From positions 40,302,001 to 40,366,000 of the forward strand of contig CM119371.1 of NCBI GenBank assembly GCA_051294905.1: DNA of 64,000 bases. The letters run 5' to 3'. Origin of the DNA: Botryllus schlosseri. Its lineage: Eukaryota. The notes below the pieces were generated by a model, which was given only the letters and a program-made list of their open reading frames with translations, was not told where the DNA came from and did not search any database. The position numbers and the translations under genes were made by a program. This document shows, one piece after another, positions 22,968 through 53,320 of the stretch (position 1 is the stretch's first letter; each line of letters opens with the position of its first letter).

Positions 22968-23058
22968 TTCTCTACTAGTTGCTGACGATTACCCCAGACG
23001 AGTGTCAGCCGAAAATATTCGGGTTCATTTCACTATGAATATATTATTCAATTGTATA
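22968..23058 (+). repeat. Dispersed ~90-bp repeat with minimal hammerhead ribozyme motif (Penelope pLTR-like)
   Basis: Copies at 24366-24411 plus 48738-48771 (-, split), 44154-44229 (+), 52735-52790 (-), 53101-53178 (-) and 53230-53320 (+). Confidence 0.7.
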
Positions 23059-23819
23059 GCGGCAGAGCAGAGCAGTGGTTCCTAACCTTGTCTCCAGCGT
23101 CCCTCAAGCGGAAACGCCCAGGGGTTGATATGGGGGGGGGCTGAGATCAGGGGCACAATATGGGGGACGATAAAGAAAAATGGCTTCGCAGTAGATGGTG
23201 TAGTATTAGGGCACATCCTTAAGGAGTATTCAGAGCAGATTAACAGTCCACAAAATATGTCATATCCTGAAATTTTTGGTCGCGCTATGCGACGATGTTT
23301 GCTAAATATGTTTTCATAAATGTAGTGGATTATTATAATTCATGTAAAATAAATTGGACGTACTTTCAGATCGCCGATTTCCCATTAAAGCACTGCCATC
23401 ACGCTTGCTAGGGTTACTTTCAACAAAATCTGTAGAACTAGGTATTATATCCTGCAGCGCATAACACGTGGAAATCGAAGAAGGAGGCTCTGTACATTAC
23501 TTTTGAGAATGAGAGCCCCTTTGTTGTTTGTCGACTACTATGATCATTTACATCAGGCATATCTTCTTTTTTATTCCGTAGCTGCCGACTTGCAGCACGG
23601 CCAACTTCTAGGCTTTCACAAGACACCGCTTACACGGATGATAACGAGATGGAGCCTAGCTAGATAGGAGTTCTAGAATCGACCGTGGTCGGACTCACAT
23701 CCGCAATCTATTAGTGTTGCAGCTGTGGATTATACCACTACGCTATCTAGCCACAATGGCGCGCAAGCGATGTCTCAACAAAGCCTAAAAACGAAAATGG
23801 AGCCTTGCTATAGCAAAAT

Positions 23820-23915
23820 TTTCCAAATTAGATTAGAATAAGAATTATAGTTACGCAGTATTTTTCAAATTAGATTAGAATAAGAATTATAGTTACGCAG
23901 TATTTTTTAAAATTA
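23820..23915. repeat. ~40-bp tandem duplication
   Basis: AAATTAGATTAGAATAAGAATTATAGTTACGCAGTATTTTT twice. Confidence 0.85.
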
Positions 23916-24667
23916 GACGAGAATTGGAGTATTGAATTAGAATTACTGAATTCGCGAAAAGTTGGACATTGAATGAAGTTCGGTTAATATCAAATCAGAG
24001 TTCATAGGAATAACAAGCGTCTGTACAGAAAGCTTGGCTTTTCGCACTGTTCGGTCCTCCTGTAGCATTTTCAAGAAAACTAGAAACGTGATTGGTAGTC
24101 CAAGCAAAGATACACCTCCCAAATCAGATAAGGATGATAGGACCAGCATTTTGTTCTAATCAGTCCAACTTGACATTAATAATTATCTAGTTGTCCATGT
24201 ATGTGTGCTGTAAATCAACGGACCAGTAATGAAAATCAGAAATATCAGCCTGGTGTAAATGACCACAGTTCGTAACACCATGACTTATTAGCAAATAAAG
24301 GCGTGACTCAGTTTTGACATTCCCATAAATCTTTTGAAGAACGTGTCCAAAGTACAGAACGTCAGTATACAATTAAATAGTATATTCATATTGAAATGAG
24401 ACCCGAATATTCAGCAGCATACCAATACCGAGAAAACCATTACCGAGAATAGACATTAGCGAGAATGTCATTACCGAGAATGGACATTAGCGAGAATGGA
24501 CATTACCGAGAATGGTCATTATCGGGAATGGTCATCACCGAGAATGGCCAATGTCCAGAATATAGCTTACTGGGACTGACCTTGCCGCGAAATTTGTACC
24601 TGAGCATCGGTGCCGAATGTGGCAACGCCGTGATGCACTCACACGACCTGTGCATATGCATAACATG

Positions 24668-24920
24668 AGTAGTAGACTTAGCTGGCTTTATTGCCCGCCA
24701 ATCCCAGAAGGCCACGTCTCCTTAATTGCCACGCCTACATTGCCACATCATCCGCCCATTGCCGCACCTATGGGACGCCTATTGTCACATCATCCACCCA
24801 TTGCCGCACCTTTAGCACACCCATTGCCACATCATCAGCCACATCCATTGCCACATCATCAAGCGCCACGCCCATTGCTACATCATCCACCCATATAACA
24901 CCCATTGCTACATCATCATG
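24668..24920 (+). repeat. Polinton left TIR with CCATTGCCACATCATC sub-repeats
   Basis: First ~50 bp are identical to the reverse complement of the right end; imperfect match thereafter. Inner boundary approximate. Confidence 0.9.
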
Positions 24921-25109
24921 ATTATGCGTACTGAGCTGTTTTTGAGAATATGAATTCTCGTGTAATACACTAAACTTTGAACTAGATTTCATAACGTCAT
25001 CACAGAGGAATCAGCCAACTATCTTGATCTAGGTTGTAGGTTCGAACCCTGTAGTCACCGCATTTCATACGATTCAGCACCTTTCATGTCTCCTAACTTT
25101 TACTCGGTC

Positions 25110-25704
25110 TCATTGAAATAGCATTGTATAGTGTACGATTTTATTTCGAAAAAAGAGCATATCAATGATATCGTTGATCGTTATTGCGCCGATTTGCGTG
25201 CTGAAATCCTCCAGATCGGTTGGTGTTTCGAGGTACACCGCTTTGCTGCCATCCGACGCTGCGATCCGAGTTCTTGCGTTCGATCTGACCGTTTTGTTTG
25301 ATGTAGCGATCGTTGGCTTGTAGTATATACGATACGAGCGGAAGGTCGGGATTAGGAACAACTACGCTGGGCGAATAGATGACGAATTCGTCAGCTGGAT
25401 TCAGAGGTTGATAATGCTCGATCCCGTCGCGAGTATACGTAACGACCAGACCTCCTTCATGCTTCAGAGTGGCTCGATATTTCTGAATGGTCCCGTTTGT
25501 GGAATGTACAAAGAGTTGATCCGAGGTCAATTCTGCTCCATTCGAAGCTTCGATACGTAATTTTGTGATGTCATTAAAAAGATACAAGTCTTTTCTATAG
25601 GGCCCCTGGGCTAGAATAGTATCTCCACGGATTGCTAGACTCATTCTTTGAAAAGAAATATCAAACATAAGTACAACAGTCATCACGCAATTCCACCTCG
25701 CCAT
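25110..25704 (-). CDS. Polinton hypothetical protein, possibly frameshifted near 25260
   Basis: 181-aa ORF (25162-25707) directly downstream of the IAP gene. An overlapping ORF ending at 25110 may be the true C-terminus. Start uncertain. Confidence 0.5.
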
Positions 25705-26242
25705 CAAATTTAGTCGAGTCTCTTCTTATATTAGGTGTCGCATAACAGACATTACGAATATATTGCAACCCCTTGCGCTTTATGAGAAAAGGACACGTAG
25801 GATAAAACTTTGCATGCTCGAGCCAGGGGTCATCGCACGGCAACCAATTTTGAAACAGCCCACCACACGAGAAACACTTTAAATGATCCTTATAGCCCAA
25901 ATAGAGCAATCCGCAGTCTGCAAGCTCGGTTCCAGAGGTATTGATATTATCCGGCCACCGCATAAATGTGCTTAGTCTACGAGCATAGCGTACCATGTTA
26001 TAGAAAACGGGGTCATTCAACGGGGAGACAGTTACATCTCTATGCTTCGCATAGCATTCATAAATCTTTTCTCCTCTGTTATTTATCATAGCTTGGTACT
26101 GTTCAATGGGACCCGTCCGAGTTTCATCTTCGCTTATATCTATGCTACTTGTGGTACCGATGCAAGCGCAGTTTAATGCAGCATAATTTGTAGGATCCAC
26201 ACTACGCTTAGGTAGCGAATCGCTTTGATCAATGTTCGACAT
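25661..26242 (-). CDS. Single-BIR inhibitor-of-apoptosis (IAP)-like protein
   Basis: RRLSTFMRWP...LADCGLLY...DHLKCFSCGG..NW..DDPWLEHAKFYPTCPF is a BIR domain with CX2CX16HX6C ligands. No RING domain visible. Confidence 0.93.
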   Translation of the reverse strand: MSNIDQSDSLPKRSVDPTNYAALNCACIGTTSSIDISEDETRTGPIEQYQAMINNRGEKIYECYAKHRDVTVSPLNDPVFYNMVRYARRLSTFMRWPDNINTSGTELADCGLLYLGYKDHLKCFSCGGLFQNWLPCDDPWLEHAKFYPTCPFLIKRKGLQYIRNVCYATPNIRRDSTKFDGEVELRDDCCTYV

Positions 26243-26279
26243 TGCTATCCAAATTGATATACTCTCATGATTAGTATGC

Positions 26280-26508
26280 TTTATATAGATATTGAGCTAT
26301 GCACCATCGAAAAATGTGCTTGGTGCCGATCGAATGATAGGCCCCGAGGTCATATCACGGAAATTAGAACGTCGACTGCTCACAGAAAAAGACACGTACC
26401 TCATATCCGTTGATGGTACGTATTATCATTAATTAGAATGCTAGTAAGAATGCCACGAGTACAATCACGCGCTCTCCGCATGCAAAGCGCATGTAGTTCA
26501 CTATATAA
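26280..26508. promoter_or_regulatory. Divergent promoter region with two TATA boxes
   Basis: TATATAAA on the minus strand (26287-26280) ~40 bp before the IAP ATG; TATATAA on the plus strand (26502-26508) ~40 bp before the ATG at 26548. Confidence 0.65.
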
Positions 26509-26547
26509 GAGAGGCTCGAATACGAACTAAACTATACTGCAAAAAGG

Positions 26548-27789
26548 ATGTCGACAATGGAGAAAGCAAGCGACGTAGTTAGCGAATCAACAACTATGAT
26601 TCCTGATAATCAAGCAGATACATTACCGATTGGTGATTTCGATTCCGATGTCGATGCAGAATTGATCGAAGTTACGATTGCAGCTGAAAAGAGTAAAGAG
26701 GCGGAAGCTAGTGATGATGACGTAACAATTATTGATGAGGTAGTGGCGCAATCTGATGAGGCTCCCTTAGCTGACGTGGTGACTCCGATCAATATCGGTA
26801 TACCACGACCGGTGATGGGACCAAGTGAACCTAAATCTAAGCGCAGACTCGACTTCGATAAGAGCATACTACCAGTTGGTGCTCAATTTACGCCTCCACA
26901 GAGTACTGATAACTCGACAGCTGTGACCAGTGCCCAAAGCCCACCTCACTCACCGATCATCGCCCCATGGAGAGTTTATTCGTCCCCTTTTCGCAATAAG
27001 CGACGTCGTATCGCTAATAACGTATTGGACGAGGAAAAGTTTGATGGTCTGATTTATAATTTGGATTACCCTCTACTTACGATTGATGATGGTGTATTAT
27101 TTTTCCGTTCTCTTGAGCAGAATATCGAGGAGGTGTTGTTTGTTGATCGAAAACGGAGCCCTAATTTTCTCCGTGCTGTGTTCATTATCACCCTAATGGA
27201 GGCTCATATGCATAAGAAATATTTTGCGCCTCACTTCTTTATAGAAAGCAAAAATCAAACAGGGAAAGAAGTGTTGATCGATTTGTTGCTCTCTGACGAT
27301 ATCGCCAACTTCCTAGATCCTTTTCATCCGAATCTAGAGGCGTTCAAATTTCACAATACCGAGAAATCTATTTCAGTGATGCGCAATTGCGGGTCTCTAT
27401 TTTTCGATAACAAGATGTTGCAGGAAGCCATTATGTACATTCATCGCAGTCCTTTGCAGTCTGCTTACGGACAAGTAAAGCCGTCGTCGTTTTGGCTCGT
27501 TTCTGAAATTCAGAATGGCAGTGATGTTATGTTACGCAATTTGGGAGGGATGTTTCAATCTAGCACAGTGATTATTCGCTTCGGTAATCAGTGTTATCCT
27601 TGCTACTTGCCTGAGATGAATAAGCATGCTCGCCGTAAAATCATACATGATATATTTGCTCGTACATTCATACCGTCAGATTCCGGATTTGAGAGTGATT
27701 CCTCTTATGTTGAAAACGATGTGCATGCACGTGAATTTTATGCCAAATTCGATGAGCTCAAACGACAGTACAATGACTGGTATATTTGA
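26548..27789 (+). CDS. Polinton accessory/early protein, 413 aa (acidic disordered N-terminus, NLS, short linear motifs)
   Basis: Long intact ORF behind a TATA box. Contains KRRLDF, S/T-P clusters, RNKRRR and DSGFES. Confidence 0.8.
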   Translation: MSTMEKASDVVSESTTMIPDNQADTLPIGDFDSDVDAELIEVTIAAEKSKEAEASDDDVTIIDEVVAQSDEAPLADVVTPINIGIPRPVMGPSEPKSKRRLDFDKSILPVGAQFTPPQSTDNSTAVTSAQSPPHSPIIAPWRVYSSPFRNKRRRIANNVLDEEKFDGLIYNLDYPLLTIDDGVLFFRSLEQNIEEVLFVDRKRSPNFLRAVFIITLMEAHMHKKYFAPHFFIESKNQTGKEVLIDLLLSDDIANFLDPFHPNLEAFKFHNTEKSISVMRNCGSLFFDNKMLQEAIMYIHRSPLQSAYGQVKPSSFWLVSEIQNGSDVMLRNLGGMFQSSTVIIRFGNQCYPCYLPEMNKHARRKIIHDIFARTFIPSDSGFESDSSYVENDVHAREFYAKFDELKRQYNDWYI

Positions 27790-28144
27790 TTTGTTTTCTC
27801 AGATTAATATGGAACCTTTTAATTGTGGTAAAGATCTAAATATGTTGGTACAACAATACGGTTCGGGAGACACAAGACGTACGCGAGATGCTACGACTGC
27901 TACCTTTGAAGGTTTTATTGATGACGATATCAAGAGAGTTGCCACTTGGCGAAAAATGGTCTCACTGGAAGGATATGGGGAATGGCAAAAAGATTTTCTC
28001 GTTATAGCAAAAAATGTGCTTAAAGATATCGATAAATTTGCTCCCAATGCCGATGAACTGCGTAACTTGGAAAATATCAAATTTCTATTTCTTTATGAAG
28101 CTTTCAAGTGTAAATTGCGACTGAAATACGGAATAAATTTATGA
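27773..28144 (+). CDS. Polinton hypothetical protein
   Basis: ORF 27626-28144. Likely start is ATG 27773 or 27809, overlapping or abutting the upstream stop. AATAAA at 28132-28137. Confidence 0.6.
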   Translation: MTGIFDLFSQINMEPFNCGKDLNMLVQQYGSGDTRRTRDATTATFEGFIDDDIKRVATWRKMVSLEGYGEWQKDFLVIAKNVLKDIDKFAPNADELRNLENIKFLFLYEAFKCKLRLKYGINL

Positions 28145-28177
28145 ATGTGTATTTTTGCAGAATATAGTTAAAAATAT

Positions 28178-31100
28178 ATGGCTCGTCGAAGACGCTACGA
28201 GGAAGATGCTAGCTTTATCATCGATGAATCGCTCGGTTTTGATAACGACGCAACAGAGGTTTTGCAATCGCACTCCAATTCGAATATCGATTCCGAATGG
28301 ATTAATAGCAGGAGGGTTGCAAGAGGTGCGAGAGAGGCGATCAATGTACGTCTAATCGGGAGAGGTATGAATGATATTCATGGGCGCATGTCATCGATAT
28401 TCCCGAGAAGATTGCGACAATTCAAAGCTAACTATGCATACGGCTTCTTGCTGTATAATCGAGAGACAGAAAGACATAGCTATTTTCATCCGCAATCAAC
28501 CCGTGCTGTTTTGGATCTACCGACACCTATACTTTCACGGGAGGACTTTGATCGTTTCATTAACGAAATCGATTTATCAGCTGCTTACGAGCAAGCGAGA
28601 CAAGCAAGACCGGACACTAAGTTTTACTGCGTTGCTATATTACATATTCAATTTTTCTTGTATGAAATGCCACGAGTTTTACTGGGCTGCCCTAGTGCAT
28701 CGATATCTAAGGAGCTAAAAAACTGTCGTTATATAAGAACATTTATTCGAAATAGACGTGGAGAACTACTGAACGATTCGCTATGCCTCTTCCGTTGCTT
28801 ATCCCAGTTCATCAAGAAAAAACGAGACGAGAAGCACGTCGCACAATTGGCCTCTCAATTTCGTGAACGGTACCGTATCCCTATAGATGACGGTGTACCA
28901 CTCGATGAGTTGAGTAAAGTTGAGGAATGTTTTCACGTAAAGATACTTGTCTATGAAAAACGTGATCATCAAGCATTTTTATTGCGACAGTCCGAAGCGG
29001 ATGACCCAGTGGTTCATATACACATGGAAAGTGCACATTCTTGCCTGATCACAAATATCGAACTTTATTCCCAGACATTCTTTTGTGAATCGTGTAAAGT
29101 TTTCTTTCAGACTAAGGATAATTTAACGCGTCACCTAAAACGCAAATGCACAACGTCCCAAGGGAGGAAATATGCTAGCGGGGTATACCGACCGAAACCC
29201 ACCGTATTCGAGCAAATGGAATCCGAAGGCATTTTCGTTGAGAACCAAAAGAGATTCTTCCCGTACCGTATGTGTTTTGACTTTGAATCCATGCTCGTGA
29301 AGGATGAGCTCAGAGCTAATTCTGCAAAAGTAGAATACGTTAATAGGCACGTCCCCGTCTCCGTGTCCTTATCGAATAACGTAACGAATGAAACTAAAAC
29401 TTTCATATCCGACGGTTGTCCGCAGACGTTAATCGATGAAATGATCGGGTAAATTTATCGCGTACAGGAACTCGCCTCAGCTGAAATGCGAGAATCTTTT
29501 GCCAATGAAATAATCGAACTTGAGAATTTGATTGAAGAACGGAAATTGATCGATCCCTCTAATAGAAGAACCTATTTGGATAATATCTCGCTTCGACTCC
29601 ATACGTGGCTCGATCAAATACCCATAATCGGTTTCAATTCTTCGCGCTACGATCTGAATTTATGCAAAAAATATCTAATCAAATCCTTGCACAAGGAAAG
29701 CGGATTCTTCGTTTTGAAAAGGAACAGCGCCTATTTGACAATCGCAACGCACAGATTAAAATTTCTGGATATTTCGCTATTCCTGAGTCCGGGTTATAGT
29801 TTGGACGCTTACATGAAGCTATACGGGGATGGGGTGAACGCAAAATTTTATTTCCCCTACGAATATCTCGATAGCATCGAGCGCCTCGACGAAACGTCGC
29901 TACCGAGTCATGAATCGTTTTACAACGCGTTCCGCAATTCGAATATAACGGAAGAGCAATACGCAGAATGCGTCGCTGTATGGCAACGCGAGGGTATGAC
30001 CGCATTCCGCGATTTTCTCCGATATTACAACGAAGGTGACGTCATTGGCTTCTTAACCGCGCTGAATAACAATTTCGAATTTTACAAAACGCTCGGCATC
30101 GATATGTTCAAGGGTAACGTGAGCCTTCCGAATATAGCGAGTAGACTGATGTTTCGTGATTGCTACGATATCACTCTTCTGAATAAGGCCAATGCTGACC
30201 TTCACGAAACGATTCTGAACAACTTGGTAGGAGGTTTGTCACAGATTACGTCACGGTACGCTATGGCGGGTGAAACGAAAATACGCAGTCTTCGCTACGG
30301 TGACAGTGCTAAAACCGTCAAGAAAGTAGTAGGATATGACGCAAATGCCCTCTATTTGGGGTGCATAAATCAAAATATGCCAACGGGTTACCCTATAAGG
30401 TGGATTTATGATGAGGAAAAGCAAAAATTCCATAAACAGCGCGTTTGGCCTACTCATGCGGAGCGCGAATGGTTGGAATACGAAAGTCACGTTCGTGACA
30501 TCAAAATTCAGCACGCCTGGAACGGTAGTCAAGTGAGAATCGGAAATAAACGCCTATTTGTCGACGGGAACGCCGGTAAACTCATCTTTCAGTACGATGG
30601 GTGCTATTACCACGCTTGTAGGAGCTGTTTCCCCGATAAAGAGAACACCGAGAGGCGTGAACTCACCAAACAAAACACGGAATATTTGGAAAAATTGGGA
30701 TATACCGTTATCCGTATGAAGGAATGCGTTTGGACGAATATGAAACGAGACCCTGAAATTGCGCAATTTGTCTCAAAGTTCGAGCGTAAAGTCACGAAAG
30801 CTTATTATCTCACTGAGGCGCAGTTGCTCAAGCGCACGCTCGACGGCTCATTTTTCGGTGCAATCGAGTGTGACATTCATTGTCCCGACCATTTAAAATC
30901 GAAATTCGAAGAGTTACCTCCTTTTTTCAAACATATGGAAGTAAACGAGTGCGATATCGGTGAACATATGCGTGAATACGCCAAGGAAAACAATATTAAG
31001 TTTCCGAAAAAATTTCTGGGCTCTAGTTATTTCACGAAAAAACAGTTATTTAATACGGATTTGCTTCAATGGTGCTTGAAAAGCGGCATGATCGTGACTC

Positions 31101-32003
31101 GCGTATTCCAAGCTGTCGAATATGAACCAAAACAAGTTTTCACACCCTTCGTTGAGCGAGTATCCTCTGAGCGTCGCAAAGGCGATGTCCTCCCAAAAGA
31201 TCCGGCCCGTGAAATGGAGGCGTTGACATGGAAGACGATTGGAAATAGTGCTTTTGGCCGCACTATTCAAAACCCTAATAAATATAGGGAACACGAATAC
31301 GTTACGTTGGAAGAATTACCGTCGTGCGTTGAAAAAAGTAGCTACGCGTCCGCTAAACATTTGTGACGAAAACCCAGTCATTGTGGGCTTCTTTATATTC
31401 TGCTGTGCCAAGCTGAGAATGCTCCAGTTTCTATATGACTGCCTACATGTGTATTTGGACGATAGCGATTGGGGTTTTCTCGAAACAGATACTGATTCGG
31501 CGTACATAAGCTTAAGCTCCGATACGATCTATTCTCTCATCAAGCCTTCCATGAAAAAACAATTTTTTGAAAATCACGACAAATGGTTCGTGGCTCGCGC
31601 ATGTGCAGAGCATAAATGTGATTTTGAACGAGATCCCGTTGGTTTTAAAACTGATAAAGCATGCTGCATTGAGGTTCGCAATTACTCGAAGCGTATACCG
31701 GGTTTATTCAAAGAAGAGTGGATCGGAGATGGGTTTATAGGCCTAAATTCCAAGACCTATTATTGCAAAGGCGACACCGATAAATACAGCTCGAAAGGGC
31801 TTCAAAAAACGGCCAAGAAAACTTTCAAAGATTTCAAAGGCATTCTTCAAAATAGATCGATCACGGGTGGCGTCAATAGTGGTTTTCGTTGCTATGGGAG
31901 CGATATGTTTACGTATAAGCAATATCGAAGTGCTTTGAGTTATGGTTATTATAAAAGGATTGTGCTTGATGATGGAATTCATACATTGCCTTTATCTCTG
32001 TAA
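28178..32003 (+). pseudogene. Protein-primed family B DNA polymerase (pPolB), disrupted
   Basis: Exo motifs DFES, GFNSSRYD, YNEGD; polymerase motifs YDANALY, KTIGNSAFG, DTDS, KTY; zinc finger CESC..H..C. ORFs 28178 and 29486 are in the same frame, separated by TAA at 29450-29452. A frameshift at ~31340-31366 leads into the ORF ending at 32003. Confidence 0.92.
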
Positions 32004-38217: not shown

Positions 38218-38359
38218 ATCAATAGTTTAAAAGTTTGCTTAGTACGTTTAAGGGTGATATTCGCTACGTTCATTATAGCAATCATCTCAAAGTAGTAGAC
38301 TCTAAATCAGCAGTAGCGACTTGCTTTCGGTTAGGTGATAGTGGCTACATATTACCATT

Positions 38360-40743
38360 ATCTAGCAAGAACCAGGAATTTGTATTGAGTGACTTCGCTC
38401 CTACAGCAAACGCAGCTTACATTACGGCGGTACTGAACATCGAGTAATAAGCGGGACTAGGCAGGCTACCCTTAATACGAATTTGCATTTTGCTGGTACA
38501 ATCTATGCTATAGTTGAGCGACTTTGATACGACCTCAGCACACTTCTTTGATATAGCTGCGCAACGATCTAGACTTGAACGTCGGCGTCTGGTACAGATG
38601 TGATGTTATAGCTTCAACACATAGCGTTTTAGGAGGTAAATTATAGCATAGACATAGGTTATAGATTTTATTCACCATCGGAAAAGCATCAGTGCACTAA
38701 CTATTAAAATCACGCATCTATAAGCAGCAGCTTATGGACTAGTGGCTTCATATTATCATCATCTAGCAGGAGCCAGGAATTTGTATTGAGTGACTTCGCT
38801 CCTATAGCCCCAGCAAACGCAGCTTACATTAATACGGCGTTACTGAACATCGAGTAATAAGCGGCGCTAGGCAGGCTACACTTAATACGAATTTGCATTT
38901 TGAGGGCACAATCTATGCTATAGTTGAGCGTAAAGCTAGAATTCATAGACTAACATCCATCTCAAATCCGAAGTGCATACCCGCGCAGAGTAATTATAAC
39001 CAAATTTAGTCCAAATCTATACGGAAATGTAGCCTAACTCGCCTGCGTCATCAGCCGAAGCGTATAGCGCGATAGCAGGAATGTGAAATTTTCTGAGCGT
39101 AAATTGCGAGTGCGATGTCGGTGTTTTGATCTGAAATGAAAAAAATTTAGCTTCCATCCGCGGCGGCGTAGCGCATCTTAGAATAGTCGATAAATTATAT
39201 AGCTATGCTATTCGTGCAGCTATAAGCATAGGTTTATATTGGCTATATATTTTATTCACTATCAGAAATGGTAAGATAAAGCATCACTGCAATAGCTATT
39301 AAATCAGCTCCATTACGTATCTAAAAGCAGCGGCTTATGGGGTTGTAAAATCAGCATAATCTCAGTAGTTAGATGCTTGCTACAGCTTGCAATTTACCAA
39401 CCTTAGGTCGTGAGTAAAGCTAGAATTCATAGACTAACATCCATCTCAAATCCAAGTGCATACCCGCGCGGAGTAATTATAACCAAATTTAGTCCAAATC
39501 TATACGGAAATGTAGCCTAACTCGCCTGCGTCATCAGTTGAAGTGCAGAGCGCGATAGTTGTGATAGAAATGTGAAATTTTCGGAGCGTGAATTGCGTAT
39601 GCAATGTCGGCGTTTCGATCTGAAATGAAATGAGCGAATTTAAATATAGGCGATAAATAATATATATACTGTTGCTGTAGCTAATTAATTAATTCATAAT
39701 ATTGTAATCACACTGCGCGAAACGAGTAATAAGCGGGACTAGGAACTTGCATGTACATACGAATTTATCCGGATTCGAGCATATCCTCGGTTAACATTAT
39801 AGCCGTGCACAGAACTCATTATTACGTTATTTGCTATTTAAAATGATACGGGAAATCTCGGCGTAATTCGATCTGCGCGCATTATCCATTTATGCTCCAA
39901 TGCGTTATGCGACTTTAGTATAGGTATTGGATCTAATATATTATATAAAACTTGTACGTTGCTATATATATCTTAATCTGAAGTGCATTGCTGCATCGAA
40001 AAATTATAGCTATACGCGATACGCTGACGATTTTTCAATATGGTCAAGAAATGAAATAACCCACCTTTAGTGTTGCGTAATCTGCCTTGTCATTATATGC
40101 TTGTAACTAGTTCCGGGCTTGCTTGCGGTGCTAGTCTTCTTGGCTGCATGAAATATGATGTTTTAGCTTCAAACTCAACGCATGAGCATGTCGTATTTGT
40201 AACCGCAGCGAGATTCGAGTAATAAGCGAGGCTAGATAGTCTACCCTTAACAGAGAACTTGCACATACATTCGAATTTATGCGACTTCGGCTATATTGCA
40301 TAGCCGTGCACAGAACTCATTATTACGTTATTAGCTATTTAAAATGATGCGGGAAATCTCGGTGTAATTCGATCTGCGCGCATTATCCATTTATGCTCCA
40401 ATGCGTTATGCGACTTTAGTATAGGTATTGGATCTAATATATTCTATAAACATGTACGTTGCTATATATATCTTAATCTGAAATGCATTGCTGCATCGAA
40501 AAATTATAGCTATACGCGATACGCTGTCGATTTTTCAATATAGTCAAGAAATGAAATAACCCACCTTTAGTGTTGTGTAATCTGCCTTGTCATTATATGC
40601 TTGTAACTAGTTCCGGGCTTGCTTGCAGTGCTAGTCTTCTTGGCTGCATGAAATATGATGTTTTAGCTTCAAACTCAATGCATTAGCATGCCGTATTTGT
40701 AACCGCAGCGAGATTCGAGTAATAAGCGAGGCTAGATAGTCTA
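38360..40743. repeat. Polinton non-coding tandem repeat array (~400-500 bp units), continues at 46864-47480
   Basis: CGAGTAATAAGC motif at 38441, 38851, 39723, 40216, 40716 and 47340. 38935-39150 matches 39415-39630. 500-bp period in 39723-40716. Confidence 0.9.
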
Positions 40744-43700
40744 CACTGTAAATCCGCAAGGTCGTATTGAACACTTCATAACACTTTTTTCTGCGTACAG
40801 ACACACTTTTGGGGCATATAAACGCATTGGGCTATTATCGTCGCAACGCTTCTGCGTATTTCTCCGTTTACATGTAACACTTCGCCACTGCGGCTTATTT
40901 TCGAGAAAATTTATACTTGGTAATTCATCATCAATTTTGCATTCATAAACCATCGGTACGTTTAGAGATCACGTTAAATCATGGTATATGTAAAATAATA
41001 TTACTCACTTGACCCAACACTAAGTTTAAGGGTAATATTTCAATGAAATATGCATATTTCCCTGTGAGGCAGAGGGGTCACCACCTTCGTTACGGTAGAG
41101 GGCGCTCGTTTTCAGTTTGGATTTGAATTGGTGGTTCGTCAGGCTTCAGGCAGAGAGTAGGGTACACGAAAAAACTTGGCGGAATGGATATATTGAAGCA
41201 GTTTCTGCTACCTGATGGCGTAAAGGATCATAACATCCATGTACTGTAAGGTATGGAAATGCGGTAAATGTTATTGAATGTATGTAATGTGAGAATAGTC
41301 ATAAAATGAACTCGTTTTGACATTGCAGTAACGTCGTTTGTTTTAGATGTTTTAGTAGGCTACTGATATCCCTTATACATATGAATGTTCTTTAGATGTT
41401 TTGTAGTATATGATTCGTCTGATATTATTGCTGGATGACCGAGCTTCGAATCTGATAATATACCAGGCTGCGACCAGGTCCAGTACTACGGTACTGATGG
41501 GAAACTGCTATAAAAGTAACTTTTTTGACATATGGATAAAGGGATGTTCTCTCTATCCACACTGAAATATCACTATGCATGTAGGCGATATTGTGGTCCA
41601 TTGTGGACAAGTACTGCAATGTCAGCAATTGAATGCCGACATGACAGTCATGCAACGGTTTTGATTGTTTTTCAACTGCAACACATTTTACACTGTACTG
41701 TTTATCCCAAGTGGTAAGGTGTTAACTAAAGCGATTTTTTGACATGTCAAAATAGGTCAAAATTTTGTCAAAATTGTACCGTTACGTCAAAAATTGCCAA
41801 AATTCTTTACAAAATAAAATTTGGTTGGCAACTTGCATTTCGTTTGTATCATAGATGATTGCACTGTCGGTGAACATATCATTTTACAATTTACATCTTG
41901 TAGCCTACTTTATAGTCCTACCGTTGTAGACGGACCATCGTCTGCTCATTGTGAATCATAAACTGTCAAATGAAACAAATACTCAACGTAGCCTATTGCA
42001 CTATCCTAACTGAAGCAAGACTGCGTGGGCATTGGTTCTTTTATTAGAAACCGTGTGATGAAATATTGCGATGTAGACAACTTTGTCATAATGAGAGAGA
42101 GAGAGTGCAGTGTACGCACAACTTCAGTGTTGCCGGCCAACAACTGCAGCTGGTGAACGTTCTTTCTTCATTCTTGCCAAGCTACTTAGTTAGGACAGAC
42201 ACTTTCTACCCGAATATGTAGGAAAGTATCTTTCGTTGTACTACAACAAATTTTTAATTATTTCTACCATAATACGAGATGTAACTAATACTGAATTATT
42301 CATGGGTCCAGATTTCGATAAAATAAATTCTTTTTCATGTAAAAATTTGTCAATTTTCATGCTAAAAGATTTTTTCAGGTCAAATTACTTCGGAAGAACA
42401 GACAGCTCCAGCCAGAAATAAAGATAAGTTCCGGTAATACAATTCTAACACTATGTGAGAAACACCTAATTTAAGTACATGGGGTCAAAATTAAGTTTTT
42501 CATCATCAAAATATGTGTGAATTTGAATTTTGTAGTCAAAATCTTACCTTTTTAGGTCCAAAAAATCGCCCCAATAATAGCCAAACAAACAATCTTTTCA
42601 ACAAACCATGGATCACAAGGGGTAGTATTTGTTTTGCCCAATCCCCAAATTTGACTTATCTAAGTTTATTGTGATACGGTAACTGAACTAAACTCTATTT
42701 TGCAGGTAGTATGTATTGGACTTGGCACCTGTTTGAAATGCATTTGCTGTATGGAATACTGGTAAGCATCACGGTGTTTTGTAAGTGAACTGGTATATCC
42801 TTAGAGAATGAATTTGATTCTGTTGCAATCGGTTACCTTTGTGATAAAGATTTTTATGAACGTTTGCTGATAAAATTTCACAAAAATTGTTAACAATCCA
42901 GGAAGTATACTAACTGTGCCAGAGTAAAATTGGTGGTAACGTCATGTGCAACTTTCCATTCCATTACTTAATTATTCTACGAAAGACACCCTTCTGTCAC
43001 GCACAACCTATTGCAGAAAAAAAAACTGTATCCAGTATGATATCTGCGTGACTACTGAGCAGTTCATTTGTATTGCAAATTTTGGCAACAAATATTTCTT
43101 TTCAATAGTCTTGGATTGATCCTCAAATTCGTTCAACTGATGTCCACTCTTTAAAAAGAGCCCCCTGGGTGTACCGTGCCTGCGCTATCAGACAATATTG
43201 ACAGTGACGTGAGGAGTCGTTCTTAACGGGTTTTGTGCCGGCACAGTCATCTTATGTGATACAGTCCTTTGTCTCAAGAGCCCATGGATACATGTGATTA
43301 TGTAAGCCTATTTATTCATTTTATATATCACCATTGATTATGTAATTTGCTGGTTTTTGCAGTCCTACTTTTCTCACAAACATTCTCGCAGAGTAACTTA
43401 CGGGCTATTCGATATGAGCTGAAAAAGGCTTCATCTGTGTACACTGAACACTGAACAGAGATGTAGTTGAACGTAATGAGCTCGTGTAACTTGTACTTTA
43501 ACTATTGCTTACTGAACTATATTGGGCTAGGTCAGTGGTTCTCAACCTGGGGGGATGAGCACCTCTCCTGCGCTTCTGTAACCTATCTGTGTGAAATATT
43601 TATATTTACTTCTGCATCAAATTTACAATTTCCTTTGTAATGTTTCGTATTTTCTAGGAGCAGCATTTGGATTTGTCCAGTAAAAAAAGATCCGCCATGG

Positions 43701-46700
43701 CACGCCACAAATCAGGGACTCATCAAGCCTGGGTTGCGGCTGATGGAAAGAATATGAAAAATTCCCCCAAGGTGCAGGTAGTATGTATTGCAATCGGCAC
43801 CTTCTTGAAATGCATTTGTTGTTTAAAATACTGGTAAGCATCGTGATGTTTCTTAAGTAAACTGGTATATCCTTAGATCATGAATTTGATTCTGCTGCAT
43901 TCGGTTATTTTTATGAATGTTTGCTGGTAAAATTCCACTAAAATGATTAACAATCCAGGAAAGCATGCTACTCGTGCTGGAGTAAAATTGATGGTACGGT
44001 CACATGCAACTTTCCATTACAATAATTATTTGTTCTATGAAAGACACCCTTTTGTCACATACAAATGTATCCAGTCTGATATCTGCGTAATACTGAATGC
44101 TGGTGACGTCATATTTTGTGATACGATTTTGATGTACATCGTTCTTTCGAGCTCTCTACTAGTTGCTGACGAGTCTCAGCCGAAAATATTCGGGCTCATT
44201 TCAATATGCATATACTATTCAATTTTATATTGAAGTTTTGCACCTCAAAGAAGCTGTCCGAATATTGAATAGTTCCCTTGTATTGCAAATTTTTGAAACA
44301 AGTATTTTCTTTTCAACAGTCTTGGATTGATCTTCAAATTCATCCAACTGGTGTCGACTCTTCGTAAAGACCCCCTGGTTCTACCGGGCCTGTGCTAACA
44401 GACAATGTTGATAGTGACGTGAGGAGTCATCTGAACGGATTTCGTGCCAGTGCAGTCATCTTTTGCGATAATACTTTTGCCTCAAGAACCCATGGAAACA
44501 TGTGGTTATGTAAGTCTATTTATTCATTTCATATATCACCATTGATTCTGTAATGTGCTGGTTTTTGCAGTCCTAATTCTCTCAATAACTATCTATATAT
44601 GCGATATGAGCTGAAGAGAGGCTTGATCTGTGTACATTGAACAGAGGTGTTCTTGAATGTAAAGAGCTGGGGTAACTTGTATTTAAACTATTGCTTACTG
44701 AACTATACTTGGAACATCAAATTGAGATCATTTCCCATGTCGTGCTAATTCCAAATAATTTCGTTAATTGAATTTAATCAGGAAGGAAGGATTTGAAAGA
44801 TTGAGAACAATTACAATTACTGCAATGAAGGAAAAGTATTCAACACCTTCCATAAGATGTCACGAATTTTTTTGTTCTAAAGACATTCAATGTGTCCTTT
44901 GTCTGGTATATTTTCTCGTCTCAATTCAAAGCAGCTATAAAATCTTAGAATCGAAGTTATATGTAAAGCCTACCGTATGTCAATTATTGTAATGGAAATC
45001 CAAACCCATAGGAATAACGATTCTACTATATTTATTTTCGGATCTTGTTTGCATTCAATTACATTTTCAGTAAAACGAGGTTGATGAAGTCAACTGTCTT
45101 CTTATCCAAGCCAAATTGAGAGACAAGCTAATACAATCCAAGACCCAAGCGCATGTCTTATTGAAACAGGTATCGTAATCTTTCTGTTTTGTGGACCATA
45201 CAAATTTACATAGACCGTTCGTAGACGTACATAGACGTTCTGCTATAAATTTCATTCTGAGCTACAGTTCTGCATTCTCACTGTGGCCTGTGCGTCTGAA
45301 TGTCAATGTAAATGTCAAAATGGCCGAATTGAAAAAAACGCAGACCTAATTCAAGATATTTTTATTAGTCGTTATGCGAATTTTAGTCCTTCTCAGTGAT
45401 AGGATTTCACATTTACCCGAGCGCCTTTCCTGCGCTTGTGTAACCTGCATGTGTGAAATATTTATATTTATTTCTGCATAAAATTTAGAATTTTCATTGA
45501 CATATTCAAAACTTTGGAATTTAATCACATTTTCAAGGAGCGCAACTTGGAGTCGACCAGTAGAAAAGAAGCAAACACCATGGCACGCCACGAATCAGAG
45601 ATTGACCGATCCTGGATCGCAGCTGATGCCAAGAATATAAAACTGCTTCAGTGAAAATGGAGTATTCAGAAACATTGTTGACGTTTTGAGCTACTATGCA
45701 TTGGATTGTCATACCCCGAAGGAGTGGTTCTCAAACAGGAGAAAGCATTTGAAGGGGCGTGAAGCTGCTGTCAACTAAAATCTTTCTCGCACATGGCAGC
45801 TTCTACTTATCTCTCTGTGTATGGTCAGAATTTAATATTTGAATATTCTCTCATCAACAACTATTACCGTCACTGCCATCCAACTATGAGTTGGGATTTC
45901 TAGCGTTCTGGTTGCTTTTTTTAATTTCATGATACGACGATAAGGGGTGTGTGAAATTTTATTGCTATCACAACGGGGCGTGTCCAAAAATGTTCAAGAA
46001 CCAGTGCCCTAATGACTTCCAGATTTCATATTTTGCAGCAGACTGGTAAATAACAACAAAATCTTTTCTGTAAATCTGCAAAATTTGTATGGACTCAAAG
46101 AAACGATTTCTTTGTTATTTAAACAAAAGTGATTGGCATTAACCTGATATAAATACTTGTATTGCACGCCCAAGAATATTTTTGATGCCTGGTTAGCAGG
46201 CCCAAATTCATTAAGAGTAAAAAATACTTTGTTACTTGCTTATCGTGGTAGTGGTAGTGAAACTGATACATTCATTGTTTATTTACAATAAAATTATAAA
46301 TTTACAAGCCATAATTTGATCAATTTTAAATTAGTTTTAATGATTTGTGTTGATCATGTTTCCGTCAACGGACGTAACCAATGAATTTGATTCCATGCCA
46401 TTGTCACGAAAGTTGAAGATACTAAATGATATTTTGTTATCGCTATCCCTAATTCCCTATGCATTCATTTCCATGATTGAACGAGCTGCATGATATTTGT
46501 AGTGAGTTTGCTCTTGATCATTTATGATGTTCGTGATTTCATGGACTATTCCGGAAACGGCTTCAACTGCTGATCTGAAATTATGAAACCCTGTCACAGC
46601 AGCTATTGGAAATTTCAATGTTTGTACGTATTTCATCACCCAGGTTGGGTGTTTTAAGCGTCATCTATTCATGAATCAATAAAATCTGATTTTATTTTGA

Positions 46701-47850: not shown

Positions 47851-48104
47851 TACCACATTTGCACGCGTCAATTTCTTGGAATAGTATTCAGCAATATGCG
47901 CGGCGCATGAGCTTTGCGTGATCGTAGGCCTTTATGGTTGCGATATCTGTATTATGAAGTTGCATTTGCAGAATTCCCCAAAATCATTGACTAATTAATG
48001 ATGACACAGCTGTTATAGTACACAATAACTCGAAAAAGGTGTTGTCTCGGAATTTAAGAGAGAATCGGTGGTTATATTCTCAAAACAGCTCAATACGGCT
48101 AGTT

Positions 48105-48181
48105 TGCTCAATAGTCTGGTGGTGAGCGACGTGACATTATACCCATCCAAACCAGGTTCGATTCTAGCTAAGGTAAGTTTT
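48105..48181 (+). ncRNA. tRNA-like Pol III unit (A box, B box, T-run)
   Basis: TAGTCTGGTGG (48112) and GGTTCGATTCT (48155) at tRNA spacing, TTTT at 48178-48181. Cloverleaf stems are poor. Confidence 0.4.
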
Positions 48182-48269
48182 GGCGTGGTAATGAGTGTCA
48201 TAGGTGCAGCAATCGACATCGCGCTGGTTGATGCGGCGCTGTGCACCATATAGATGCGGCAATCAATGC

Positions 48270-48499
48270 GGTGATGATGTGGCAATGGATGATGTGGCAC
48301 TATAGGTGTGGCGCTTGATGATGTGGCACAGATGATGTGGCAATGGGTGTGCTATAGGTGCAGCAATGGGTGAATGATGTGACAATAGGTGTGCTATAGG
48401 TGCGGCAATGGGCGGATGATGTGGCAATGTAGGCGTGGCAATGTAGGCGACGTGGCCTTCTGGGATTGGCGGGCAATAAAGCCAGCTAAGTCTACTACT
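48270..48499 (-). repeat. Polinton right TIR
   Basis: Reverse complement of 24668-~24900. Inner boundary approximate. Confidence 0.9.
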
Positions 48500-49064
48500 A
48501 ACATGCCTGCATTGCATATATTGCATTTTCGGTAATGTCCATTCTCGGTGGTGTCCATTCTCGGTAATGTCCATTCTCTGTGGTGTGCATTCTCGGTAAT
48601 GTCCATTCTCGGTGGTGTCCATTCTCGGTAATGTCCATTCTCTGTGGTGTGCATTCTCGGTAATGTCCATTCTCGTTGGTGTCCATTCTCGGTAATGGCA
48701 TTCTCGGTAATGGTTTTCTCGGTATTGACCGGACACCAATATTTTCGGCTGACACTCTTCAGGGGTAATCGCGCGACATCAAGCAATATTTCCTTCATTA
48801 CAACGAATTCAAGCCGACAGACAGAAGACAGAAGATCGCGACCTCGAGCACAAACATTACCGCGTTAGCATTCGTTGAAGGGACATTAAGGAGAAATTAC
48901 ACACTAACACTGGAAATAATATTTGTCCGATGTGATACGGATTTCATCCGATATAAGATCCCGAGACAAATCACGGCGCAAATCTGCGATTGGAGTGAGG
49001 TTTGGCGTTGCTGTGTAAATCGGGCAATATATTGCGTCCTCGTTACGAAATCATTTGTGTAGAT

Positions 49065-49410
49065 CAGTGGTTCCCAACGTGGGCGATTTGGCGGCCTAGG
49101 AGGGCGAAAATGATGAAGGGCGCGATAGGGGCGCGAAAATGGACAAAGGGGGCGACAGGGGGCGATGACGCGTTGAAACGACTATATTGGAGTCAAGTCG
49201 GAGAAATGACCTTTTTTCTTAGTCAACCCACGGAAATTTAGTTGCAAAAGTGTAAAACTCGACAACGAACCGAAAAGTTGACCTTTTTTTAGTCAATCCG
49301 CCGATGATTACAGATTGTATGCCGATTTTTCGGTTCACAGAACTTTGGGGGCGATGATTGACGTTGAGCTTGAAAAGGGGGCGATGAGTCGAAAAGGTTG
49401 GTAACCACTG
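49065..49410. mobile_element. hAT (Charlie-like) MITE
   Basis: CAGTGGTTCCCAAC / GTTGGTAACCACTG ends; TSD GTGTAGAT / GTCTAGAT (7 of 8 match). Confidence 0.85.
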
Positions 49411-50789
49411 GTCTAGATGCTTTACTATGGTCAGAATTCGCCACTATCGCGAGGGGTCCGTGGTCATAGGAGAAATGAACAATTGGGCATGTGACAAATG
49501 GGTGGGTTAAGTTTTAGCTTTAGGGTTGATTTAGGGACTTAGGGTTACGGTCAGAATTGGAATAGATATATATATGAGGGATAATTTCAGGGGTATGCCT
49601 GTGGTTAGGATTAATTTTGGAGTTATATAGTCAAATGCTTAAGTGACGCATGCTCAAGCGTCCATGCCCAGCTGTCGTTTTTCATTGTGTCCCATTCTCA
49701 TATTCTCGGGCAATCATCGAGAGGGTATTACAAAGACACCATAGCCACATAACGTTTGGGGCTGGTTTATTCATTTGCGTTAGATTGTTAGTGCGCAATC
49801 ATTGTTAGTTGCGACAGTATAACTACAATAGGTTTTCTTCTTACTTAATGTCCAAGTGCAAGATGCGATTTGCTATCCCTATCAAAACCACCTCAAGTGC
49901 AGTAGAAAATCAAAGGTCGGAAAAGCACTCGAGTAAGTGGCGCTGAGACAGGATTTTAGTAGACATTCGCAGATATCCCCTTTCCAAATTGCCAGATGCA
50001 TATTCGCGACAAAAGCAAAAGGACTAATAACCTTACACATATTATTTTATGCAGGGGTTATATTGCATGCTTGTTATGACAATTTACCCCGAAACGTGTA
50101 ACCAACATATGCCAAAACCACTCATTGCTTTCAAAATTCCAAGTCTGAAAAGTAGGTAGTTTGGACTTGAAGACTGTGAAATAGAAGTAGTAGTCCAAAG
50201 ACACAACAGCCTGAGTAAATATGAAGTAGAAGTAGGTAATACCTACTTGGGTACACCGACAAAGTATACCTCATTACTGATAATCTAAGTAGTTACGTTA
50301 CACGTAATTGAATAGTATATTCATATTGAATACTATTGAATTGTATATCGAAGTTCTGTAACTCCAAGAAGCTCTTACACGTGATTGTAGACTGAAATCT
50401 ATAAACCTATAAATTCTACTTCGCGGTGCGAATTTTGTGGTAACACCTTGTTTCTTCTGTTCGTCACATATGATTCTATTACAACAATCGATGGGTATGC
50501 TATTTACCCTGGTTGGCGGACGTCATGTGATAAACTCACAATGAGGTCATCCAGCCAGCAAAGCATCGAATATCAGCTTACAAAATACTTGTGGCATCAA
50601 CAATAAATGAAAACCGGTCATTCTTGTACCATAATAGTATAAAGTCAGTTCGGTATCGGATCAAGACGGACGTCTCAAGCATCCAATGACGATTTGCATA
50701 TGGCATATGTGCTTTTGGAAAAGAATTAACTTTCGACTATTTGCGACAATACTTGGGTCTGAAGTGACTTCAGTAGCGATCCGGATATC

Positions 50790-51659
50790 ATGAGCTTGCT
50801 TGGAGCATATTTGTCGGCTGTGCTGTCACTGGTGAACTTTGTGACGGATATCTGCTCGGTTTGGATATACTGGATGCACACGGACGATAGTTTGGACGGT
50901 TTCTATGTAGCGCTAATCTCTACACTGATCTTATTTATAAGTCCCATACCTATTACCATGGGTATAGCGTGTACCTTCACCAAAAGATCCACTAAAGTGG
51001 AAAAAACTTTGCGCAAAGCAAAAACGCTCGAATTGACATTGACAGCTATACCTCAACTATGGATCAGTTTATACGCTTTATCAGTGGGCGCAAATCTACT
51101 TTACGGGGAAAGAACACTATTACTCGTGTCATCAGCTATGTCGTATTTATCAGTATGCGCGATCTTACCGCGTGCCGATAACAAAATGTTAAGTAAAACC
51201 TTTCAAAACGATTCCATGACTGACTTCGACCGTTTCGTGGTTAACGCCTCAAAATGTGCGATGTTTATGGCGCGAATTTTGTTGCTGGTTTACATGACCT
51301 CACAGATCGGATGGTATTATACGGCTATGTTTTTTGGGACACATTGGATTTTGTTATCTGCTCTGTGTTTTTGTGCGATTTCAAGACATTATACCAATCC
51401 GTGTCGAAATGCTGTTGACGCGATCGAATCAGGACTTTTGCATTTCTTCTCGTGGGTATGTCCAGTTAAGCGGTCTTGGTCTCATTTCTTCATAACGGCG
51501 TATTTTATTTTGGAGCACGTTCTAGCGTGGATCTTGTTGCTGTGTTTGCCTAACAACCAATCTACTTTTCTCATCGTCAATGTACTGGCATTTCATGTGT
51601 TGATGAATACTGTCGCTACTTTTTTCATGATTGCGTATGTTATTAAGAAATGGCCGTGA
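50790..51659 (+). CDS. Intronless XK-related (XKR scramblase-family) multi-pass membrane protein
   Basis: 289-aa hydrophobic ORF; TD in TM1, LE....PQL...LY, ARILLL, HW and FILEHV match the XK-family motif order. Confidence 0.72.
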   Translation: MSLLGAYLSAVLSLVNFVTDICSVWIYWMHTDDSLDGFYVALISTLILFISPIPITMGIACTFTKRSTKVEKTLRKAKTLELTLTAIPQLWISLYALSVGANLLYGERTLLLVSSAMSYLSVCAILPRADNKMLSKTFQNDSMTDFDRFVVNASKCAMFMARILLLVYMTSQIGWYYTAMFFGTHWILLSALCFCAISRHYTNPCRNAVDAIESGLLHFFSWVCPVKRSWSHFFITAYFILEHVLAWILLLCLPNNQSTFLIVNVLAFHVLMNTVATFFMIAYVIKKWP

Positions 51660-53100
51660 GTTCGGATATAACTTATCCTGCTGCACTGAAGGGTTTACAA
51701 TTACGCGGGAAGTAATATATAGCCAATTATTGCACGCAGTCTCCTAGTATTGCGCATAGCGAATATTCCTGCTGTGCGTCAACTTATACACCCGTTTCAT
51801 TTAATTTCGTAAACAGCTTTTTCATTTCGATGTCATCAAGGTGATTTATTTATTTTCATTGCAAATCTTAGTTTCTAGTAGGCTATTTGTTTTTACCGAA
51901 TGCGTTAGAAAAATTCAAAAGGGCCAAAATCGACTGTCACCAGACTGTTATTTCATGTCATGTGACGTACGAAAGCAATTACTTTAGTATGGACAAGACA
52001 TTGTAAAAGAGAGGAGTATTCTTCACGGAATGTGTGGCAGTCATACATAGGACTACTCCAGCATACTCAATGTATATCCATTTTTGTGAATATTGGTTGT
52101 AATCACAGCTAAAAGAAAACGTTAGATTCGGTGCGTGCTTCTTCATCATTCGTATCTCCTACTGTGTGACACAGTCACAGTTGCCAACGAATATTATAAC
52201 GAATATTATAGCGCAATGCAACATTGTTCCTAATGACGTCGTGCCATTTGAAAAATATGACCTACATTGCCCCAATGCTCGCATCAGAATCAAAATCAGT
52301 TCAGAATTATTATTCATCAAAAGTTTCGTGGAATAAACGCGAACTGCGATACAATCAAACATGAAGAATACGTCGAAACAGCTTCTTTAATACACTCGAT
52401 CAACTCTTACCTCGGCCTGCATGCTTGATTGGGCTGGACATTATCACAAAAATTAGGAAATTGCACATGATCTGTACAGTATATGTGAGGCATGAGATGT
52501 CGGAATAACTGGACCATTTACGCCTCTCTTTCAAATCACGTAAAACGCACCAGTTTATCCCACACGATAATCTCATAATCGGGGTGTCAAATTTGATTTT
52601 AAATAATTATACGTATTGCAATATAGGATTCCCGAAGCCCCTCGTAAATCACACAGGATGGGGTTTTGGCCTTGGATGAATTCGCAATACAAATAAAATC
52701 GTTTTAATAATATATTCATGACATAAATATATTAAATCCCGAAGCTTTTCGAGCTGACACTATTCAGCGGCAATCGTCAGCGAATGGAGAATTTCAAAAG
52801 CATATTTCTGTCATGAATATATTATTAAAATATATATTATAGTTCTGTACCCCAAAGAGTCTCTTCAAAAATAATCGATTAACACGCGAAATCTTCATAT
52901 CTTGACGTATGGCCGACTACACAATGCACACGATAAGTTGCCAACCCTTGGCCTACGGAAATATCGAAAAATTGGACAAGCAATAAAAATCAAGATACCT
53001 ATTTCAATACGAGGCACAATGGAAGTCAAAGTGTCAGCCAAAACATATACTAGCATTTGAATAGCTTCTGGGGGTACAGAACTTCAATATAACAATGATT

Positions 53101-53320
53101 AGCATATTCATATTGAAATGAACCCGAATATATTAGGCTGACACTCGTCAGGGGTAATCGTCAGCAACTAGTAGAGATCTGGAAAGAACATTGTATTGTA
53201 CCATTGTTGATATAAAATGTTCTCTCCAATTCTCTACTAGTTGCTGACGATTGCCCCTGAAGAGTGTCAGCCGGAAATATTCGGGTTCATTTCAATATGA
53301 TTATACTATTCAATTGTATA
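53101..53320. repeat. Inverted pair of hammerhead-motif repeats
   Basis: 53101-53178 is the reverse complement of the 53230-53320 repeat, with a ~50 bp spacer. Confidence 0.75.

Follow-up and report, generated by a model that had tools for sequence, protein, structure and literature searches.

Dead insertions of a Penelope-like retroelement in Botryllus schlosseri carry a candidate dimer-type hammerhead with a pseudoknotted helix II

The stretch of DNA analysed here (the window) comprises 64,000 nucleotides of the Botryllus schlosseri genome (assembly GCA_051294905.1, contig CM119371.1, forward-strand positions 40,302,001 to 40,366,000). A sequence-only reading of this DNA had described a dispersed family of minimal hammerhead ribozyme motifs between window positions 22,968 and 53,320 and had linked it to Penelope-like elements. 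The motif is present at this location, and a profile search together with a covariance model recovered seven motif-bearing copies in the window (A, B, C, D, E, G and H) as well as four further pieces that contain the downstream part only (F, I, J and K). The evidence presented below supports the assignment of this repeat to the 3' pseudo-long terminal repeat (pLTR) of a Penelope-like element. The individual pieces, with target-site duplications (TSDs) and open reading frame (ORF) starts where found, are as follows.

22932-23058 (+): copy A, putative solo pLTR fragment, short 3' end without the tail, TSD not found
22981-23024 (+): hammerhead motif of copy A, U4 changed to A
22981-22987 (+): copy A, pseudoknot strand, predicted to pair with loop II over 7 bp including a terminal G.U
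22991-22994 (+): copy A, 5' strand of helix I, partner 23021-23024
22995-23001 (+): copy A, core C3 to A9, U4 reading A here
23002-23010 (+): copy A, one-pair helix II (G10.1, 7-nt loop II, C11.1)
23011-23020 (+): copy A, G12-A14, 6-nt palindromic helix III (23014-23019) and C17
23035-23058 (+): copy A, putative Penelope ORF, ATG and first 8 codons
53045-53327: head-to-head pair C(-)/B(+), 10-bp TSD (53045-54 and 53318-27, 1 mismatch), 31-nt tail (53055-53085) on the C arm only
53243-53286 (+): copy B hammerhead, A13 changed to G; in a shifted register GAAA is retained, but G10.1-C11.1 and the palindrome are lost
53122-53165 (-): copy C hammerhead, G12 and A15.1 altered, ORF start at 53111(-)
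44089-44270 (+): copy D, the longest piece (44099-44260), with tail and 10-bp TSD (1 mismatch)
44165-44195 (+): copy D motif, 13-nt deletion between two CTGACGA words
52706-52870: head-to-head pair E(-)/I(+), divergent subfamily by sequence, tail on I only, no convincing TSD
52781-52737 (-): copy E motif, AAGCTT palindrome, G8 altered, an extra base before C11.1, two of four helix I pairs broken
48738-48772 (-): copy G, 5' half; helix I strand, loop II, GAA and a core intact to U16.1 are present, as is the palindrome, at which the copy is cut; the pseudoknot strand is truncated
24335-24411 (-): copy F, apparent 3' half of G (palindrome, C17, helix I strand, ORF start, tail)
50298-50382: pair J/K, tiny head-to-head insertion without a hammerhead, consisting of ORF-start sequence alone; TSD of 8 bp without mismatch, tail on one side
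20952-21030 (+): copy H, heavily degenerate, motif match at 20959(+)

The covariance model was built from copies A, B, C and E and from L152, a metagenomic relative described below. It returned seven matches in the window at E<=1e-4, four of which are training sequences, and the next match had an E-value of 2.6. Copies A, B and C are identical to one another at 84-88 of 99 nt, and copy E shares 68-71 of 99 nt with them. A minimal-hammerhead descriptor, composed only after the motif had been seen, gave two matches in the window, and 100 block shuffles yielded none. Rfam reported no hammerhead family in the window at E<=5, nor on copy A and L152 at E<=10. The absence of any Rfam score and the late composition of the descriptor are what speaks for a chance resemblance in an unrelated repeat; this explanation is hardly credible, given that the motif lies where Penelope hammerheads are found and that the independent relative carries compensatory changes. 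An alternative register, in which the first CUGACGA word is the true core, was rejected by inspection since helix II would not close. The descriptor match at 53244 for that register requires a 23-nt spacer and a 13-nt non-palindromic loop.

Sequencing reads were used to examine the family beyond the window. Four of the 24 listed runs (three genomic, X1, X6 and X14, and one RNA run) were mapped on copy A at 80% likeness. In X1, 32,946 contigs match copy A, and the depth sums to about 2 million over the motif versus 22-29 on the unique right flank; this sum is not a copy number and contigs may overlap, yet it points to a family of at least thousands of copies. The same family was found in runs labelled as organisms B and C. 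The position of U4 reads T in 95.6%, 99.3% and 99.6% of the depth in X1, X6 and X14, respectively, and in 1265 of 1389 RNA reads. The U4 change is thus private to copy A and the consensus core of the family is intact, as had been claimed from the letters of the copies. The word CTGACGA is common to the pseudoknot strand and the core, 13 nt apart, and the intervening stretch is gone in copy D. Loose ends before position 22997 in all four runs (33-133 records each, with low agreement) fit this deletion, which suggests recurrent slippage between the two words.

Relatives of the motif were searched in viral contigs and metagenomes. The exact family patterns gave no match in either collection, and a looser pattern gave 37 viral and at least 119 metagenome loci, at least 116 of them distinct. 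Among the 116 distinct matches listed, helix I reaches at least 4 bp in three, a palindrome is present in 36 and a pseudoknot strand lies at the right distance in seven. The metagenomic locus L152 is the only one of these 116 that combines all three features, with about 0.01 expected. Approximately 170 nt 5' of its core ends a frame that matches the C-terminus of reverse transcriptase (RT)/GIY-YIG proteins (22 of 25 candidates, best E 2.8e-14); among the matched proteins, P0019 has an RVT_1 domain and P0010 a GIY-YIG domain. Every catalytic position is common to the window family and the divergent L152, though the helix letters differ. The core elements CUGANGA, GAAA and UH with G10.1-C11.1 are thus present in both the family consensus and L152. 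Two additional, more general patterns matched 39 and 63 loci with 88 distinct hits; helix I reaches at least 4 bp in none of these and 3 bp in five. Loci coding for relatives of P0019 were confirmed neither among viral contigs, where one pattern match arose, nor among prokaryote genome contigs, where 42 did. Two side observations concern these matches. A duplicated stem-loop of about 21 nt lies 3' of the hammerhead in L152 (249-295, minus strand) and scores 27.7 bits with the Rfam model Histone3 (gathering threshold 34), probably by chance. Another match, L180 from a bacterial metagenome-assembled genome, combines the core and a palindrome with a helix I of 3 bp and an upstream stretch of 6 nt that is loosely complementary, and this resemblance is probably also due to chance.

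The link to Penelope-like elements made in the sequence-only reading is borne out by three lines of evidence, namely the insertion anatomy, the match to an ORF start and the position of L152 beside a GIY-YIG C-terminus. All three inverted head-to-head pairs (B/C, E/I and J/K) bear a tail of about 30 nt on one arm only. Short, AT-rich TSDs were found at three of the six insertions tested (10 bp at B/C and at D, with one mismatch each, and an exact 8 bp at J/K), and none was found at A, E/I and F/G. A paralogous segment at 42701-43525 is without copy D. Inverted truncated copies, a one-sided tail of 30-40 bp, duplications of 8-10 bp and first codons within the pLTR have been described for Penelope-like elements (PMC8557442, PMC3846280, PMC11167929), and the anatomy of the window repeats agrees with the descriptions in the first two of these papers. 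For the ORF start, 51 relatives of P0019 were collected, of which 23 seemed to cover the N-terminus and 22 were gap-free, and these were used for a profile of 18 columns. The four best of the 127,888 18-mers of the window are the repeat tails at 52813(+), 44206(+), 24389(-) and 53111(-), which score 30.4, 30.0, 24.9 and 16.6; the first three exceed the maximum of 21.1 among the best scores of ten shuffles (13.4-21.1). The downstream frame of L152 itself scores 37.9. The repeat therefore ends in the first approximately 18 codons of a Penelope ORF, whose start in copy A lies 15 nt beyond the predicted cut. A different N-terminus is encoded by the E/I pair, which is a separate subfamily as judged by sequence. 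The element probably belongs to the endonuclease-bearing clade Penelope/Poseidon, since the linker between RT and endonuclease in its relatives is without a zinc-finger-like motif.

The window contains only short pieces and the read depth is very high, and both solo pLTRs and Penelope-derived retrozymes have been described (PMC3846280; bioRxiv 10.64898/2026.07.22.740005). These points would also suit a self-standing, non-autonomous element, similar to a short interspersed element or a non-LTR retrozyme, which borrows Penelope proteins. Such an origin is very improbable. The 5' ends of the copies are ragged and reads run on upstream of the longest copy; the window copies are dispersed or inverted without tandem units, and the listed back-joints, at which a read goes back, occur in one or two contigs each. 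In L152, moreover, this motif is directly connected with a GIY-YIG C-terminus. The repeats of the window are thus better read as 5'-truncated, dead insertions of the pLTR of an endonuclease-bearing Penelope-like retroelement.

The predicted fold differs from a conventional hammerhead in helix II, which consists of G10.1-C11.1 alone with no extra base after A9. The loop that this pair closes is complementary to a strand upstream of helix I, and the resulting pseudoknot would comprise 7 bp with a terminal G.U pair rather than the 6 bp proposed from the window alone. The linker between this strand and helix I is 3-4 nt long in copies A, B, C and E and in L152, and the pseudoknot duplex is predicted at about -10 kcal/mol in both the window family and L152. 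In the alignment of these five sequences, in which copy E is off by one column, both sides are changed in 7 of the 14 named pairs: five of the seven pseudoknot pairs (none of which is broken), one of the three helix I pairs counted, and the palindrome centre. Overall, 95.7% of alignment cells pair, versus 23-38% with slid partners. The pairings are hence supported by one independent relative. The palindrome of helix III is AATATT in copies A, B, D and G and AAGCTT in copy E and L152. Its covariation, as first claimed, rests within the window on the one decayed copy E, and the same replacement in L152 gives it independent support.

In a monomer, helix III closes one pair only (+4.9 kcal/mol), and dimers are the cleaving form of hammerheads that have one pair and a palindromic tetraloop (PMC7229834, PMC6765202); a dimeric fold is inferred because of these two points. 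The RNA of the active element would accordingly contain, in its pLTR, a type I hammerhead whose reduced helix II is completed by the 7-bp pseudoknot with the strand 3-4 nt 5' of helix I. This pseudoknot would tie helices I and II together and replace the usual loop-loop contact. Two pLTR copies within a single tandem transcript most likely exchange strands to give the active dimer, which solo and head-to-head genomic copies would be incapable of forming in cis. Cleavage would occur after UC, approximately 15 nt before the ORF start, which by hammerhead numbering falls between 23020 and 23021 in copy A. This cleavage may also have a role in transposition.

Minimal hammerheads (min-HHR) of metazoan Penelope-like elements have been published (Cervera and De la Pena 2014, PMC4209133). 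The window family shares with them the type I order, a short helix I, the pair G10.1-C11.1, a palindromic helix III, the location in the pLTR and the numerous solo and opposite-strand copies; their Aedes and D. willistoni rows include palindromes of 6-8 nt. In contrast, helix II is a hairpin with 3 bp or more in all 56 representatives of Fig. S3 of that work, most of which have an extra base after A9; in its place the window family has a one-pair helix II, no extra base and a 7-bp pseudoknot. The earlier assignment to the known minimal type thus holds for helices I and III and departs from it at helix II. The descriptor used in that study demanded a stem II and could therefore not detect the pseudoknotted form.

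A pseudoknotted (PK) hammerhead is reported to have been first described by Weinberg in 2015, as a type I variant in which stem II has a single pair and both a pseudoknot and an additional hairpin are present. Reportedly, Lunse, Weinberg and Breaker also described small Penelope-associated hammerhead variants that cleave as dimers in 2017. The PK hammerhead has been crystallised in an active form (Zhan et al. 2024, PMC11300833, PDB 8YDC) in which the loop closed by a lone G10.1-C11.1 engages in a 6-bp pseudoknot, and helix II of the window family resembles it in combining this pair with a pseudoknot to a strand 5' of helix I. The corresponding strand of 8YDC is part of the loop that caps a 5-bp helix IV; an A-minor triplex and a 6-nt linker are present, and helix III is long and stable in the construct used. 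By inspection, the window family has instead no helix IV, a linker of 3-4 nt and a dimer-type palindromic helix III, and it belongs to an animal retroelement. Pseudoknots between stems I and II were found in all three hammerhead types by Perreault et al. (2011, PMC3088659), and an example with a one-pair stem II and a 6-bp pseudoknot was active; this example is a metagenomic type II hammerhead for which the available part of the paper gives neither a Penelope link nor a palindromic helix III. For Penelope-associated small hammerheads, a review describes a short palindromic stem III and dimer cleavage (PMC6765202). The association and the palindromic stem III of the 2017 variants are shared by the window family, for which dimer cleavage is predicted. 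Non-LTR retrozymes, short non-coding repeats with type I hammerheads and a proposed origin from Penelope pLTRs (PMC7229834; bioRxiv 10.64898/2026.07.22.740005), are tandem arrays with canonical hammerheads, whereas the window copies are scattered or arranged head-to-head and carry a tail, a TSD and an ORF start. The window motif is PK-like at helix II and min-HHR-like at helix III by its sequence, and it fails one defining feature of each. While the connection between Penelope and hammerheads is already known, a pseudoknot in place of helix II was not found described: the literature consulted held no account of a one-pair, pseudoknotted helix II in Penelope pLTRs, and the figures or supplements of Lunse 2017 and Weinberg 2015 may contain one.

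Taken as a whole, dead pLTR insertions of a Penelope-like element with a pseudoknotted, dimer-type hammerhead are the probable explanation of these repeats, against which the following results have to be weighed. In the window, none of 148 frames (at least 62 aa, outside the satellite and the Maverick gene block described below) encodes an RT or GIY-YIG domain, and no full-length member of the family was seen. The core is broken or cut in all seven motif-bearing copies, which agrees with the damage already noted for the contiguous ones. All counted compensatory changes come from L152 and hence represent one good independent observation, not a statistic; its pseudoknot difference may moreover reflect a 2-nt slide rather than five separate events. 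Helix I varies in the genomic reads, with position 1.1 reading A in 11.9% of the X1 depth (at most 1% in X6 and X14) and a 1-nt deletion in about 3% of the X1 depth. The 40 listed of 136 variant rows include no palindrome variants. In these rows, excess conservation of the core across genomic copies, a check proposed with the sequence-only reading, was not found: G8, G10.1, C11.1 and C17 vary in 7.3-10.2% of RNA reads and the upstream non-core positions 22972-22979 in 7.7-10.8% (rounded, 7-10% versus 8-11%), and many variants sit at CpG. This comparison is uninformative either way, because dead inserted copies decay neutrally.

Predictions of stability add further points of this kind. The AAUAUU homoduplex is weak (-0.2 kcal/mol), and predicted monomers are no more stable than shuffled sequences (z -0.2 to 0.7). 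In the predicted monomers of copies A and E, a 5-bp hairpin forms over G12-C17 and buries G12-A14 and the cut site; the program used for folding has no pseudoknot capability. The helix between the upstream strand and loop II dominates the predicted monomer ensemble together with this inactive hairpin, and it has no helix IV support as in the crystallised PK hammerhead. It could on these grounds be an off-switch, that is an alternative fold outside the active ribozyme. We consider this improbable, as helix II would otherwise be a lone pair with an open 7-nt loop able to pair with the core. A span of 6-7 bp crossed by a single nucleotide is usual in pseudoknots, which also argues against an off-switch. 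Furthermore, the active structure in PDB 8YDC has G10.1-C11.1 with a pseudoknot formed by a 6-nt loop.

The RNA run bears on activity. Of its 12.9 million reads, 2,387 match the family, with both directions alike and 99% continuing into unlike flanks, which fits passive read-through of many copies. Read starts and ends pile up at no site, and none of the listed 15 of 68 joints (one RNA run, about 6% of it read) is an RNA joint, as circular RNA would give. This lack of a pile-up, the competing monomer hairpin and the low activity of minimal Penelope hammerheads in vitro (PMC4209133) would all suit a motif of the same origin and fold that has little or no catalytic activity in vivo and persists either as a passenger or because its structure binds protein or positions the RT. 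The hammerhead of an anole Penelope element likewise required protein to cleave, insertion in vitro did not depend on its cleavage, and RNA-seq ends gave no sign of it (PMC11167929), which weighs on the same side. An inert motif nevertheless appears unlikely: all catalytic positions are kept between the window family and L152 while the helix letters change, and ribozyme ends would not be expected in standard RNA-seq of mostly dead copies.

Several features lie beside the motif. At a distance of 2-13 nt ahead of the pseudoknot strand, a pyrimidine tract that ends in AG (22960-22978; 53166-53190(-); L152) resembles a 3' splice site, and no RNA joint at this tract was found among the listed rows. 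An intron of D. virilis Penelope ends at helix I (PMC4209133). In the supplement of PMC8557442, the 3' regions of five Naiad consensus records, at least two of them from nematodes, seem by eye to hold complete hammerheads. Their parts follow one another in a non-circular order (CUGAnGA, cut site, GAAA), a further helix accompanies helices I-III, and the letters differ between the records; such records are labelled HHR_core or HHR_half_core there. The type-CSG permutation, which has this order, was reported from only two metagenome sequences (PMC10085705). Other short tandem or dispersed duplications with CTGA.GA words in the window (11834-12672, 38339-39630 and 1017-1865) do not fit the hammerhead descriptor.

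The largest neighbouring feature is a Maverick/Polinton-like element of about 24.3 kb (24412-48737), in which Pfam identifies BIR, A32 ATPase and integrase-chromo domains. A polB-like region over three frames (28172-32003), a capsid and a protease are presumed by resemblance. Its inverted ends of about 470 bp contain a 16-bp minisatellite, and their outermost 10-11 bp mismatch. Copies G and F flank this element, 24.3 kb apart, and the 6-nt palindrome stands at both junctions; from the sequence, the element appears to have inserted into the hammerhead palindrome with a 6-bp duplication. Copy D lies within it. Elsewhere, an uninterrupted hydrophobic frame of 298 aa (50763-51659, plus strand) has no Pfam match and no homolog among 1,549 candidates, and it may resemble XK-related membrane proteins. 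Two inverted arrays of a 41-bp unit (58428-61028), with arms 99-100% complementary and about 1.2 kb enclosed, are by their sequence a young foldback-like element. A remnant of a hAT transposase dimerisation domain is located at 4961-5197 (plus strand, E 2.3e-10).

The genomic copies themselves are ordinary dead retroelement fragments, and the wider interest lies in the form of the ribozyme. It may be proposed, as a tentative and rather doubtful extension, that a whole clade of Penelope elements, spread over several animal groups, relies on a reduced PK hammerhead without helix IV that is gated by dimerisation and missed by current descriptors and Rfam models. It would cleave much faster than minimal Penelope hammerheads, as the pseudoknot would provide the contact of helices I and II that these seem to lack. 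Rfam gives the form no score and descriptors that need a hairpin stem II miss it, which constitutes a blind spot. If the proposal were true, Penelope hammerheads would be structurally more diverse than catalogued and some 'core only' elements would hold complete ribozymes. In vitro, the minimal forms show hardly any cleavage (PMC4209133), which is one reason why the role of Penelope hammerheads is still a question. A natural, built-in contact between helices I and II would offer a clean test of whether fast cleavage is restored while the palindrome keeps the dependence on dimers.

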